Of a DNA stretch of 59,486 nt, positions 16,318 to 55,106 are shown piece by piece. The position numbers and the translations under genes were made by a program. Position 1 is the stretch's first letter. Each line of letters opens with the position of its first letter. The notes beneath the pieces were generated by a model. The model was not told the DNA's origin, did not search any database, and saw only the letters and a program-made list of their open reading frames with translations. Source of the DNA: Nitrososphaerales archaeon (lineage in GTDB: Archaea; Thermoproteota; Nitrososphaeria; Nitrososphaerales; Gagatemarchaeaceae); the NCBI GenBank assembly GCA_035314985.1, contig DATFYP010000101.1:1-59486 (forward strand). Direction: 5' to 3'.

Positions 16318-17586
16318 ATGAAGATAACCGCCGTGAAGGCGAGACAAGTCCTCGACTCGCGAGGGAATCCCACGGTCGAGGCGGAAGTGTTCGCCGGCCG
16401 AATGGTCGGCAGAGCGAGCGTGCCTTCGGGGGCCTCGACAGGCTCCCACGAAGCCCTGGAGCTGAGGGACGGGGACAAGAGAAGGTTTCACGGAAGAGGG
16501 GTCACGAAGGCCGTCCACAACGTGAACTCCGTGATCGGGCCCAGACTCAGAGGAATCCCCTGCACGGACCAGAAGGCAATCGACACTATGATGGTGGAGT
16601 TGGACGGGACTGCCGAGAAGTCAAGACTGGGGGCGAACGCGATTCTGGCGGTGTCAATGGCGACGGCCAGAGCGGCGGCGAATGCCCGCAGAGTCAGCCT
16701 CTACTCCCAACTGAGAGCCGGCAAGGGCTACGCGCTTCCGGTTCCCATGATGAACGTAATCAACGGCGGGCAGCACGCCGGGAATGAGTTGGCGGTCCAG
16801 GAGTTCCTCATTGAACCCGTCGGTGCCAAGAGCTGCGGCGAGGGCATACGGATGGGAACAGAAGTCTACCAGTCGCTGAAGGCGATCCTCACGAAGAAGT
16901 ACGGCAGGGGCGCGATAAACGTCGGAGACGAGGGAGGGTTTGCTCCCCAATTCAGCAAGACGAGGGACGCCCTCGGTGCCATCTCCGAGGCAATCAGAGA
17001 CAGCGGCCACGAAGCTGAGGTGAGAATCGGGATCGACGCAGCGGCCTCGGAGTTCTACGACGGTAAGAGGGACAAGTACACGCTCGACGGGACGACGATG
17101 GGAGCCGCCAAGCTCGAAGACTTCTACGCTGCTCTACATGACGAATTCGCTCTGCTCAGCATTGAGGATCCGTTCAGCGAGGGCTCGGCAGGGGACTTCT
17201 CCTCGATTACCAAGAGACTTGGGAAGACGATGAAGATCATCGGCGACGACATCTACGTCACCGACACCTCTAGGATCAGGGAGGGGATGCGCGCGCGGAC
17301 ATCCAACGCCGTCCTGATCAAGCTCAACCAGGTCGGCACCGTCACAGAGACGGAGGAGGCCATCGAGCTTGCCCGCGGGGGCGGGTGGTGCGTCGCCGTG
17401 TCCCACAGGTCGGGGGAGACAGAGGACCCGTTCATCGCGCACTTGGCGACGGCCTTCGAGTCCGAGTTCATCAAGACTGGAGCTCCAGCCCGCGGGGAGA
17501 GGATCGCGAAGTACAACGAGCTGATCCGGATAGAAGAGGAGCTGGGGCCCAGGGCGCGCTATTCGGGACCAAAGTTGGTCAGATAG
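16318..17586 (+). CDS. eno: enolase
   Basis: MKITAVKARQVLDSRGNPTVEAEV, SGASTGSHEALELRD, LIKLNQVGTVTE and SHRSGETED. Confidence 0.95.
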   Translation: MKITAVKARQVLDSRGNPTVEAEVFAGRMVGRASVPSGASTGSHEALELRDGDKRRFHGRGVTKAVHNVNSVIGPRLRGIPCTDQKAIDTMMVELDGTAEKSRLGANAILAVSMATARAAANARRVSLYSQLRAGKGYALPVPMMNVINGGQHAGNELAVQEFLIEPVGAKSCGEGIRMGTEVYQSLKAILTKKYGRGAINVGDEGGFAPQFSKTRDALGAISEAIRDSGHEAEVRIGIDAAASEFYDGKRDKYTLDGTTMGAAKLEDFYAALHDEFALLSIEDPFSEGSAGDFSSITKRLGKTMKIIGDDIYVTDTSRIREGMRARTSNAVLIKLNQVGTVTETEEAIELARGGGWCVAVSHRSGETEDPFIAHLATAFESEFIKTGAPARGERIAKYNELIRIEEELGPRARYSGPKLVR

Positions 17587-17603
17587 GAGATAGCTGAAGA
17601 AAG

Positions 17604-17766
17604 CGCAGGGGGTGGGACTTTCGCCCGAGGGAACTCCCACTCAAGTGGAGCTTTCCCCTGGGATTCGAACCCACGAGTCCCGTGAGAGACACAGGCTTAG
17701 CAAGCACACGCCGGTTGACTGCGCCTTACCAGGCTCCCCGTCACGATGACTCTAGGCTACCCCTGC
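17604..17766 (-). tRNA. tRNA-Ser(GCU) with three introns
   Basis: Removing 17737-17754 (18 nt, D-arm), 17706-17718 (13 nt, position 29/30) and 17613-17658 (46 nt, T-arm) gives an 86-nt class II tRNA. Its parts are acceptor GCAGGGG/CCCCTGC, D-arm GCCGAGCCTGGTAAGGC, anticodon arm CAGGC-TTGCTAA-GCCTG, variable arm GTCTC-TCAC-GGGAC and T-arm GTGGG-TTCGAAT-CCCAC. Confidence 0.85.
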
Positions 17767-17791
17767 TCGATTCAGGAGCCGACTGCTGACA

Positions 17792-17800
17792 GTTAAAAAA
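17792..17800 (-). promoter_or_regulatory. T/A tract, likely an oligo-T terminator for the SRP RNA and an A/T box for tRNA-Ser
   Basis: The minus strand reads CTTTTTTAAC immediately 3' of the SRP RNA end and 26-34 nt upstream of the tRNA-Ser 5' end. Confidence 0.35.
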
Positions 17801-17805
17801 GTTGC

Positions 17806-18131
17806 AAGTGGCGGCGGCTCCCCCGGAGTTCACCATCGGTCTCCGCCCCCGTCTCGCCAGACGGAGAATCCCCCACGTAGACGAAGCAGCGTGGCCACGT
17901 CACCATAGGGCTGCTCCCTCCCGGACCTCGCCCGATTCGGCAATTAGTGGTCAGGACCTCTCCTTCGAGAGGACTGCCTCTCATGACCGCCCGCCACGGC
18001 GTGAGTTCGTCTCCTCCGCCCGACGCAGGTTGCGGGGATGGTGGCTTTACCCGAAGGTTGCTGGCCTCTGCATGTTGCCGGTTTCAGCCTATCGGGAGAC
18101 GGCAACCCTCCCTGCCCTACCCGCCGCCAGT
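17806..18131 (-). ncRNA. signal recognition particle RNA (7S RNA), ends +/-5 nt
   Basis: The termini pair (GGCGGCGG with CCGCCGCC). The helix-8 signature GGUCCGGGAGGGAGCAGCC is close to the universal GGUCCGGAAGGAAGCAGCC. A helix-6-like hairpin CUCUC-GAAG-GAGAG is present. The ~326-nt length fits archaeal SRP RNA. An A/T box TTAATTA lies about 25 nt upstream. Confidence 0.85.
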
Positions 18132-19076
18132 CTCGAGGAGGTCAGGCGGTGTAATTAACCTCTGCTGCCTGAGCACATCTTTCATCCTGCAGACGCTGCA
18201 GCGCCCGGCGGACGACGGCTTCCCGCAGCTCGTGCAGGGGACGGATCGTTTCTCCGACTTCCCGCCGTAGTGAGATATGACGTCGAGGGCCGAGTTGAAG
18301 AGGACGTTCTTCATCCCGGGATGGTTGGCCTCCATCTCGTTGAGGTAGTCCCTGACATCGCTCCTCAGGCCTTCATGCATGTACGGGCAGCTGACGCTCT
18401 GGAACGGGATCCCAGACCTGTAGGCGAAGAGGGCGATCTCCTCCTCGTAGATCTCCATGAAGGGCTTCACCCGTCTCATCGCGAAGTCGCTGCCTTCGTA
18501 GGAGGGGTCGAGCCAGCCCAAGCGGCCTACGTCGCCGTGGAGCAGGTTCATCAGGAATGTCTGTACGTAGTCGTCCAGGTTGTGCGCCGTGGCGACCACG
18601 GACGCCTTCGCCTCCGAGGCGGCTTCGTCGATGGCACGCCTTCGGAATACGCCGCAGAGGCTGCATGAAGACGTGTTTCTCTCCCCCTTCCAATCCAAGG
18701 CCTTGTCGAGGGTGAATCCGAAGAGCTCCTCGTAGGTGACGATGTGGTGTTCGACCCCCAGCTCTGAGGTGACGGAGCGGGCGTGGGCAAGGGCCTCGTC
18801 CCTGTATCCGGCGACGCCCTCGTCCACAGAGATAGCAACCAGTTCGGCGCCGTGCCACTCCTTGAGGTCGCTTAGAATCCTGAGAAGGGCGAGGCTGTCC
18901 TTGCCTCCAGAGACCGCGACCCCCACGCGGTCCCCCCGTTGGATCATGCGGTATCTGACAATCGTCCTCCTCGTCTTCTCCACTACGGAGCCTGCGAAGC
19001 ATCCCTCGCAGAGCACCTCCCCCGAGTATCGCCTGGTGAAGAATGGCCTCCCGCCGCACTTCGTGCAGAAGCTCAA
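18117..19076 (-). CDS. PP-loop tRNA 2-thiolation ATPase (Ncs6/Ctu1/TtuA family)
   Basis: N-terminal CTKCG...CEGC, PP-loop VAVSGGKDS, internal SCSLCG and C-terminal CTSCG...CSVC. The last ~14 nt overlap the SRP RNA 5' end. Confidence 0.8.
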   Translation of the reverse strand: MSFCTKCGGRPFFTRRYSGEVLCEGCFAGSVVEKTRRTIVRYRMIQRGDRVGVAVSGGKDSLALLRILSDLKEWHGAELVAISVDEGVAGYRDEALAHARSVTSELGVEHHIVTYEELFGFTLDKALDWKGERNTSSCSLCGVFRRRAIDEAASEAKASVVATAHNLDDYVQTFLMNLLHGDVGRLGWLDPSYEGSDFAMRRVKPFMEIYEEEIALFAYRSGIPFQSVSCPYMHEGLRSDVRDYLNEMEANHPGMKNVLFNSALDVISHYGGKSEKRSVPCTSCGKPSSAGRCSVCRMKDVLRQQRLITPPDLLETGGG

Positions 19077-30712: not shown

Positions 30713-30835
30713 GATGTATTCGAAAAATCGACGTCATTTGCCCGAACTTAAACGTTCTGCAGAGACAATCAGGGAAGATGAAGTAATTGGGATGGGTGCC
30801 GGCATCGGAAGCTTCGCGAGAGCTCTCGCATCTCA

Positions 30836-31375
30836 CTAACACCCCGACGACGCGCGGTTTGACTTCTCCCCCTCTTTCGAGTCTGGGGTCGGAACGAGTC
30901 CAGGTCGGACCCACGCGCTATGGCCGGCTGAAGAAGGCCGAGGTTCTGAAGGTGATTTAACCGTTTTGGCGTATCGCTTGTAAGAGCCCACGATCTTTCG
31001 CATTCTATCCGCTTTGGTCGGATTCGTGAAGCCGACTAGCCTTTGATAAGCCTCAAGACTTTGACCCCTGAGAATCACCAAAACGTAGCTGTCCCTTCGG
31101 ACCTTTCCTTCTCCCTCGCGATGGTCGAGGTAAATCGTTGGCTCGATGTTCGCCTTGCGTAGGATGACCCTTACTGTGTTCAGCAGTGGCAGGTCAGTGT
31201 TCGATATCACAACCATTCTGATATTGGGATACATCATAGAAGAGTGCTGAGCCTGGTGATAGTACAGTCTGGGTCCGCCCTCTCCATCCGCAAACCCACG
31301 GACATACTTCAGTTGCTCAGCCACTGGCCATGTCAGCGGCTCGGGATATGTTTCTTCGGCGTCGACTTTGGTCAT
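30836..31375 (-). CDS. free-standing single-motif LAGLIDADG endonuclease-like protein
   Basis: LKYVRGFADGEGGP is the LAGLIDADG motif. It is about 180 aa from MTKVD. GC looks lower than the surroundings by eye. Confidence 0.6.
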   Translation of the reverse strand: MTKVDAEETYPEPLTWPVAEQLKYVRGFADGEGGPRLYYHQAQHSSMMYPNIRMVVISNTDLPLLNTVRVILRKANIEPTIYLDHREGEGKVRRDSYVLVILRGQSLEAYQRLVGFTNPTKADRMRKIVGSYKRYAKTVKSPSEPRPSSAGHSAWVRPGLVPTPDSKEGEKSNRASSGC

Positions 31376-33185: not shown

Positions 33186-33357
33186 GGGGACGTAGCCCAG
33201 CTAGGTGAGGGCGGGTGTACAACTTCACCCTGGAAAGGCAGGGCGACAGGCTCCAGTGGTCAAACAACAAGTTTGATGACACGGCAGCGTGGATGATTAG
33301 GCATTGGAGCTGCACGGGGAAACCTGTAGACCGTCGGTTCAAATCCGACCGTCCCCA
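33186..33357 (+). tRNA. tRNA-Trp(CCA) with two introns
   Basis: Removing 33214-33245 (32 nt, at the D-arm/anticodon-stem junction) and 33257-33321 (65 nt, canonical 37/38) gives a 75-nt tRNA. Its parts are acceptor GGGGACG/CGTCCCC, D-arm GCCC-AGCTAGGTGA-GGGC, anticodon arm ACAGG-CTCCAGA-CCTGT and T-arm GTCGG-TTCAAAT-CCGAC. An A/T box ccataaagcc lies about 30 nt upstream. Confidence 0.85.
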
Positions 33358-37064: not shown

Positions 37065-37203
37065 GGGGTCGTCGGCTAGGCTTTGAGTGCGGTCATTCGC
37101 AGTCAAGGGGCTAGTCTGGTCTAGGCTTCAAACCACGCGGAAGCGGCCTTGGGATCTCCTACAAGAACGCTTGAGACCCCCGGTTCAAATCCGGGCGACC
37201 CCA
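37065..37203 (+). tRNA. tRNA-Pro(UGG) with three introns
   Basis: Removing 37073-37107 (35 nt, position 8/9 to 15/16, ambiguous because GGCTAG is duplicated), 37132-37145 (14 nt, position 29/30) and 37155-37168 (14 nt, 37/38 or 38/39) gives a 76-nt tRNA. Its parts are acceptor GGGGTCG/CGACCCC, D-arm GGCT-AGTCTGGTCTA-GGCT, anticodon arm CAAGC-CTTGGGA-GCTTG and T-arm CCCGG-TTCAAAT-CCGGG. Confidence 0.85.
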
Positions 37204-54807: not shown

Positions 54808-55106
54808 AAGACGCGAGTCGGTGGACGGGCCACGGGGACCTCCTGGGGAAGTTCCTCCCTCACGGCAGGACGCGCGGCGCCACGAGGCGCAGCCGGAGAC
54901 GGCTGGCTCCAGAACAGAAACGACACCCGCCCCATCAAGGGCGATGATAGGGAAACCTTGAGGTCGGTGGGGAGCGGGATGAAACGGCTGACCCGCGCGG
55001 AGCAAGGCCGAACGTGGTCGATGATAGGCCTGCGGGAGACCAAGGTGGGCCGCTTAGCTGAATCCCGTCTAGAACAGGAGGAGGACTACGGCCGAATACG
55101 CGTCAG
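54808..55106 (+). ncRNA. rnpB: RNase P RNA (type A-like), ends +/-5 nt
   Basis: P1 is GACGCG/CGCGTC. The CR-I-like segment GGGGAAGTTCCTCC pairs with the 3' ACAGGAGGAGGACT as P4. AGAACAGAAACG, GGGATGAAACGG and CGGAGCAAGGCCGAA (compare E. coli CGGAGCAAGGCCAAA) are also present. An A/T box gttattt lies about 25 nt upstream. Confidence 0.75.

Follow-up and report, generated by a model that had tools for sequence, protein, structure and literature searches.

[quoted passage not shown] In the strict motif, hBHBh', a central helix H of 4 bp is flanked by two 3-nt bulges on opposite strands and by the outer helices h and h', and cleavage occurs after the second base of each bulge. In the relaxed hBH and HBh' motifs, one of the two sites is in a 3-nt bulge enclosed by helices on both sides, and the other one is beside the central helix. 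Relaxed motifs and multiple introns are associated with α2β2 endonucleases in Crenarchaeota, Nanoarchaeota and Thaumarchaeota, and positions 29/30 and 59/60 are among the listed archaeal tRNA intron sites (PMC4090602). The 2021 tRNAscan-SE 2.0 survey covered 217 archaeal genomes and found 16 genes with three introns, all of them in Thermoproteales; the 11 thaumarchaeotal genomes contained 39 genes with two introns and none with three, and 53 non-canonical introns were counted in 141 genes of Nitrososphaerales (PMC8450103, Table S7). In one described example, the tRNA-Pro(UGG) gene of Pyrobaculum islandicum, the introns occupy the sites 25/26, 37/38 and 56/57 (Sugahara et al. 2007, as cited in PMC4090602).

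We analysed a gene of comparable architecture in a 59-kb stretch of DNA, which as a whole is referred to as the window and whose positions are used as coordinates. Based on its sequence and that of its orthologues, we propose, with a probability of roughly 90%, that positions 17766..17604 on the minus strand (163 nt) are a functional tRNA-Ser(GCU) gene with three protein-spliced BHB-type introns: 18 nt at 15/16, 13 nt at 29/30 and 46 nt at 59/60. Since multiple introns, relaxed motifs and the sites 29/30 and 59/60 are all known, such a gene is ordinary in kind, and it leaves the known workings of these introns unchanged. It resembles the three-intron genes of Thermoproteales in the distribution of three BHB-type introns over the D-arm region, the anticodon arm and the T-arm, in the mix of strict and relaxed (hBH/HBh') motifs, in the shortness of the introns (11–50 nt) and in being missed by simple gene finders. 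Unlike those genes, it encodes a class II tRNA-Ser and has no intron at the canonical site 37/38, and its host is apparently not a hyperthermophile but a lineage from soil or peat that is related to Nitrososphaeria and has a GC content of about 60%. With the multi-intron genes of Thaumarchaeota (Nitrososphaerales, Nitrosopumilales) it shares non-canonical introns, the phylum-level neighbourhood of its closest reference MAG and, by expectation, an α2β2 endonuclease (PMC4090602), but the surveyed Thaumarchaeota have at most two introns per gene, whereas the window gene and four orthologues have three. The same three-arm distribution and BHB-dependent recognition are also found in tRNA genes of a eukaryotic red alga; there, a different enzyme complex is at work and there is no evolutionary link to the window locus.

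Standard tools do not report the gene. ARAGORN made no tRNA call anywhere in the unspliced 59-kb window, and the Rfam tRNA model RF00005 (gathering threshold 29 bits) found no match to the unspliced gene even at E ≤ 1. The same model scores the less interrupted orthologues L118, L160, L183 and L107 with 38–53 bits, indicating that the window gene is missed because of its inserts. Removal of 18 + 13 + 46 nt in silico leaves 86 nt, which ARAGORN calls tRNA-Ser(gct) and draws as a class II cloverleaf. An earlier note, made from the window sequence, had described a gene for tRNA-Ser(GCU) that is interrupted by three introns, located in D-arm, anticodon stem and T-arm, and deleting inserts of these lengths from the 163-nt sequence indeed reproduces its 86-nt product exactly. 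Its central claim is borne out by the in-silico splicing, by the BHB-type motifs and, above all, by 11 orthologues. Splicing of the single sequence is less decisive: a blind, SPLITS-like enumeration produced 234 BHB-like excisions and 34,943 products, 114 of which ARAGORN accepted as tRNAs of many isotypes. The 46-nt excision at 59/60 is common to nearly all of these accepted products, and with that many accepted candidates the enumeration cannot by itself single out the three-intron solution.

The proposed gene consists of four exons on the minus strand. Exon 1 (17752..17766, GCAGGGGTAGCCTAG) comprises tRNA positions 1–15, that is the 5' strand of the acceptor stem, the 5' strand of the D-stem (GCCU), A14 and G15. 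Exon 2 (17719..17733, CCTGGTAAGGCGCAG) covers positions 16–29 with the remaining D-loop, the 3' strand of the D-stem and the start of the anticodon stem. Exon 3 (17664..17705) spans positions 30–59 and provides the anticodon loop with GCU, a variable arm of 5 bp, the 5' strand of the T-stem and the T-loop up to A59. Exon 4 (17604..17617, TCCCACCCCCTGCG) supplies positions 60–73 with the end of the T-loop, the 3' strands of T-stem and acceptor stem and the discriminator G73; no CCA is encoded at its end. With the first junction at 15/16, the predicted mature RNA of 86 nt reads GCAGGGGUAGCCUAGCCUGGUAAGGCGCAGGCUUGCUAAGCCUGUGUCUCUCACGGGACUCGUGGGUUCGAAUCCCACCCCCUGCG. The excision restores a canonical cloverleaf in which all stems are paired, and the anticodon GCU, the variable region of 17 nt with its 5-bp stem and G73 are features of a tRNA-Ser. 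G73 and a long variable arm are identity elements of serine tRNAs.

For comparison, we assembled a set of 12 loci: the window, the locus L001 of a reference MAG and ten metagenome contigs. L001, from a MAG labelled Nitrososphaerales archaeon, was found through its enolase (68% amino-acid identity), and its gene order (enolase, interrupted tRNA, SRP RNA) matches that of the window. The ten contigs come from one metagenome scan with an intron-independent pattern of exon 3, which yielded 120 loci, mostly bacterial tRNA-Ser genes, and ten true orthologues; conservation of exon 3 is thus partly by construction, while exons 1, 2 and 4 were not selected for. In the alignment of the window with L001, the four exons are identical, and the three inserts have diverged through substitutions and indels, which begin and end exactly at the intron junctions. 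Over all 12 loci, identity is 95–100% in the exons as opposed to 67–78% in the introns and 57–69% in the flanks. Exon 2 is the same in all loci, exon 1 varies at position 3 only, and the spliced length is invariably 86 nt. By contrast, every intron sequence is distinct and intron lengths vary.

The loci also differ in the number of introns. All three are present in the window, L001, L086, L143 and L174; introns 1 and 2 in L107, L108, L168, L183 and L198; intron 1 only in L118 and intron 2 only in L160. Each insert is therefore precisely absent from at least one orthologue, and each absence yields the predicted exon-exon joint. The introns thus behave as separable units of evolution, with exact presence or absence, a free interior and a constrained motif. 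In the acceptor stem, the pair 3:70 covaries (A-U, G-C and C-G) over a distance of 100–169 nt in the genes, and in the six distinct spliced versions the cloverleaf is 100% paired, compared with 35–63% in slid controls. Because intron 3 of the A-U and C-G acceptor groups is recognisably homologous, the simplest history would start from an ancestral gene with all three introns, from which individual introns were repeatedly and exactly lost.

These comparisons bear directly on whether the gene is alive. The silence of standard tools would suit a pseudogene in decay or an unexpressed sequence that resembles a tRNA by chance, and so would the fact that ARAGORN is lenient toward spliced constructs. 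However, the exons hardly vary between genomes that share only 68% identity in their enolase, the change at 3:70 is compensatory, synteny and a TATA-like box upstream are conserved, and the less interrupted orthologues are recognized by the Rfam model with the scores given above. We regard such a reading as extremely unlikely: as judged from the orthologous exons, the precise absences of the inserts and the covariation at 3:70, the feature is far beyond chance, and a functional three-intron gene remains the preferred explanation. In more distant relatives, an intron-less version of this tRNA gene exists, as shown by locus L121 (contig Ga0208151_100001). Its tRNA-Ser(GCU) gene is of the archaeal type and uninterrupted, has the D-arm GCCTAGCCTGGTA in common with the gene described here and is flanked by AT-rich sequence.

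To describe the splice sites, we used a geometry in which nucleotides –6 to –3 before each site form the 4-bp central helix and the cut falls between bases 2 and 3 of a 3-nt bulge. This geometry was reasoned from the canonical 37/38 case and agrees with the description in PMC4090602. The clearest example is intron 3 (17618..17663, minus strand, 46 nt), located at 59/60 in the T-loop. By the rule-based scan it forms a canonical hBHBh' motif, in which h is the 5-bp T-stem, H is UUCG/CGAA, the bulges are AA|U and AG|U, and h' is CCC/GGG (3 bp). The same motif appears in the minimum free energy (MFE) fold of the whole window precursor and in that of the isolated region (z = –2.2), the latter also in L001 and L143. 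Intron 3 occurs in five of the 12 loci with a length of 43–52 nt, and its core is kept in four of these five; in L174 the motif is degenerate, and in L086 one bulge of the MFE fold contains 4 nt. The seven loci without it read TTCGAA|TCCCAC.

The earlier note had placed this intron inside the 3' strand of the T-stem, flanked by a duplication of TCCCA. The duplication is real and makes the third junction ambiguous over six positions, but the BHB motif sets the site at 59/60 and hence in the T-loop. The first bases of intron 3 repeat those of the downstream exon, and in L143 this repeat extends to 10 nt (TCCCACCCCC). This repeat resembles the att-type direct repeats that were proposed as a source of tRNA introns (PMC3293823); the symmetry of a BHB itself requires such a repeat, so that it is not independent evidence for an origin of this type. 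The tRNA-Thr(GGU) gene of Caldiarchaeum subterraneum, described in the same study, likewise shows polymorphism in the presence of individual introns among close relatives, with gain or loss at the population level, but unlike in its att-site model, no integrase or mobile element lies beside the window gene. No C/D-box motifs were seen in intron 3 on inspection by eye.

Intron 2 (17706..17718, minus strand, 13 nt, TCAACCGGCGTGT) interrupts the anticodon stem at 29/30, the position given in the earlier note, which is upheld by the motif found there and by a precise absence in one orthologue. Its motif is of the hBH form, with H GCGC/GCGU, bulges AG|U and GU|G, and an outer helix h of 7 bp, while the inner helix h' has 1 bp in the window and 0–2 bp across the orthologues. 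The 4-bp central helix and both 3-nt bulges are kept in all 11 carriers; the H strand GCGU of the window is GCGC elsewhere, which preserves the pairing. The exception without the intron is L118, with the joint GCGCAG|GCTTGC. In the window, the MFE fold of the intron 2 region is a competing hairpin and not the BHB.

Intron 1 (17734..17751, minus strand, 18 nt, AGTCATCGTGACGGGGAG) corresponds to nucleotides 16–33 of the pre-tRNA and is assigned to 15/16 in the D-loop. At this position the earlier account needs to be corrected. It had put the intron at 12/13, so that the mature tRNA would carry G13 and begin with GCC-GAGCC. This version removes the same number of bases, and ARAGORN accepts its product too. 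GCCGAGC is moreover a common D-arm sequence of archaeal serine tRNAs, which counts in its favour. Yet no BHB-like motif is found at 12/13, and the product contains a G13.A22 mismatch in the D-stem, drawn by ARAGORN as a non-pair. An AG repeat allows an alternative 18 nt to be removed, giving the junction 15/16 and U13 instead of G13, and the D-stem then has four Watson-Crick pairs instead of three and a G.A. The orthologues decide between these two positions. The naturally intron-less L160 reads GCCTAGCCTGG, that is, exon 1 runs straight into exon 2 with the joint GCCTAG|CCTGG and U at position 13. Cutting at 12/13 would also give C13 in L086 and U13 in L183 and hence a variable mature sequence, whereas under the 15/16 junction the D-arm is invariant in all 12 loci. 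An intron at 12/13 is thus very unlikely. The product proposed earlier differs from the mature tRNA predicted here by one base at position 13, and its four stems and variable arm are not all perfect as had been stated: in addition to G13.A22, the variable arm contains a U.G pair.

With the junction at 15/16, intron 1 fits a relaxed HBh' motif on paper, with H (G)CCU/GGG(G), the bulge AG|A (A14-G15|A16) and a 4-bp h' GUCA/UGAC. The registers 13/14 and 14/15 yield the same product as 15/16, but inspection by hand showed that they lack a central helix, and 15/16 was preferred. A scan of the precursor for strict BHB motifs listed no junction of intron 1. In all 11 carriers, the bulge AG|A is kept, the outer helix h has 0 bp and h' has 1–4 bp. 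The fourth pair of H is G.G in most loci, G-C in L086 (GCCU/GGGC) and G-U in L183 (GCCU/GGGU). The HBh' fold is the MFE of the 5' part of the precursor in the window only, and the local folding energy is no better than that of shuffled sequence (z = +0.8 to +1.1; window +0.8). The motif is therefore weak, and support for intron 1 comes from the comparison with orthologues, not from thermodynamics. The fold check that the earlier note had suggested for the junctions thus clearly favours introns 2 and 3; at intron 1 it yields only a relaxed form, and this only after the shift from 12/13 to 15/16.

This weakness leaves room for another reading, in which only introns 2 and 3 are spliced and the 18-nt insert is kept as an expanded D-loop, or the gene is non-functional. 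The relaxed and thermodynamically insignificant motif of intron 1 and the absence of a closing outer helix fit this idea. The pattern of conservation does not: the insert is present in 11 of the 12 loci with an interior that is free in sequence and length (15–19 nt), but the junctions AG|A and AG|C and the strand GGG(G/C/U) are kept, the G.G is replaced by G-C or G-U, and one lineage has lost the insert exactly at the predicted joint. The invariance of the exons on both sides of intron 1 argues against a pseudogene. An insert of 18 nt between G15 and C16 would also disrupt the geometry of G18G19 and the T-loop. Finally, splicing in these clades is known to accept HBh' motifs as substrates (PMC4090602). 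Retention of the insert is thus quite unlikely, and we keep removal of intron 1 at 15/16 as the preferred interpretation.

Another pairing partner was considered for the 3' site of intron 1, namely the 5' flank AATCGGCTC, which could form an hBH with GGGG-AG|C-CUGG. This pairing fits seven of 11 close relatives and is absent from L086, L183 and L118. It was set aside since the flank AATCGGCTC probably lies upstream of the transcription start, provided that the TATA-like box described below is the promoter. In the window, L001, L107, L108, L143, L168, L174 and L198, the spacer between the SRP RNA and tRNA-Ser genes (17767–17811, minus strand, in the window) contains a T-run/TATA-like box and a conserved AATCGGCTCGG block (CAGTCGGCTCC in the window). 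In seven of 11 orthologues, L086, L183 and L118 not among them, this block could pair with the junction of intron 1 and exon 2.

The genomic neighbourhood is that of housekeeping genes. An archaeal SRP (7S) RNA gene (17812..18126, minus strand; Rfam RF01857, 102 bits) lies 45 nt upstream of the tRNA-Ser gene, and this linkage is found in eight of the 12 loci (window, L001, L086, L108, L118, L143, L168 and L198). The tRNA gene is convergent with the enolase gene, and the syntenic context consists of enolase, tRNA-Ser, SRP RNA and a TtuA-like protein; further neighbours encode an Nramp transporter, a phosphoribosyltransferase, an M50 protease, a Pelota/eRF1-like protein and a Toprim primase. The TtuA-like PP-loop protein (tRNA 2-thiouridine synthetase family; 18117–19076, minus strand) is located directly upstream of the SRP RNA/tRNA-Ser pair, forming a small cluster of RNA-related genes. 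An antisense ORF (17134–17640) matches no family and was dismissed. Between the two RNA genes, TTTTTTAA (17793..17800, minus strand) occupies the positions 27–34 nt upstream of tRNA position 1, and an TTTTTAAC or TTTTTAT element is found at the same distance in 11 of the 12 loci. We infer that TTTTTTAA is a candidate TATA-box-like element and/or the oligo-T terminator of the upstream SRP RNA gene.

Based on this arrangement, expression of the gene may proceed as follows. Transcription would be driven by the TATA-like box some 30 nt ahead of the gene, or the gene would be cotranscribed with the SRP RNA. Folding of the precursor would place each splice site in a 3-nt bulge beside a 4-bp helix, in which the last exon bases before the 5' site pair with intron bases that immediately precede the 3' site. 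The sites would be cut after the second bulge base by an archaeal splicing endonuclease of broad specificity, expected to be of the α2β2 type, and an RtcB-type RNA ligase would join the four exons. RNase P and RNase Z would trim the ends, and CCA would be added post-transcriptionally. Neither EndA nor RtcB is encoded among the seven genes flanking the tRNA gene and the one overlapping antisense ORF. The window is archaeal and, besides the SRP RNA, encodes an archaeal RNase P RNA, reported by Rfam at 54813–55101 on the plus strand.

If the placement in Nitrososphaerales holds, which is based on one MAG label and 68% enolase identity, the clade would extend the range of three-intron tRNA genes relative to the work cited. 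Tentatively, and with rather less than even confidence, we suggest a broader picture: a Nitrososphaerales-related soil or peat clade that carries three-intron tRNA genes may have arrived independently at an intron load like that of Thermoproteales in an apparently non-thermophilic setting, with the orthologues recording repeated exact losses. The 12 loci, with one, two or three introns at identical sites, homologous introns and exact intron-less joints, provide a natural dataset on intron gain and loss outside the hyperthermophiles, in which this process has mostly been studied. The suggestion of a high intron load draws on the other tRNA genes of the window, which contains a two-intron tRNA-Trp gene, a likely third disrupted tRNA gene and no uninterrupted tRNA gene in 59 kb. 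There is also a practical aspect. As ARAGORN and Rfam miss tRNA-Ser and at least one, probably two, further tRNAs of the window, MAGs of this lineage will seem to be short of essential tRNAs when annotated with tools that do not allow for introns, and estimates of completeness and inferences on codon usage are affected accordingly.

The tRNA-Trp(CCA) gene (33186–33357, plus strand) is the second gene missed by both ARAGORN and Rfam. Removing a non-canonical 32-nt insert and a 65-nt intron at the canonical site 37/38 leaves a clean cloverleaf. The 65-nt intron has a good BHB motif, with H CUCC/GGGG and h of 5 bp, and contains a C-box-like UGAUGA motif. The 32-nt insert lies in the region of the D-stem 3' strand and position 26, flanked by a GGGCG repeat, and a strict BHB is absent from it in any register. 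At 37065–37203 (plus strand, 139 nt), the acceptor halves GGGGTCG...CGACCCC-A match and the T-arm CCCGG-TTCAAAT-CCGGG is perfect. Splicing by hand and by automated means gave no convincing scheme for this stretch, which is probably a third intron-disrupted tRNA gene, with Pro or Val as suggested identities. A 5S rRNA-like sequence at 30794–30931 (minus strand) scores 34.3 bits relative to a Rfam gathering score of 38 and has a segment of 34 nt where the model has 17; it may be a merely divergent 5S rRNA or one that has been expanded or interrupted. Near two of the orthologous loci, Rfam reports tRNAs of 91–92 nt (L198, 1045–1135, minus strand; L086, 3984–4075, plus strand), whose length suggests that these genes have short introns or long variable arms as well.
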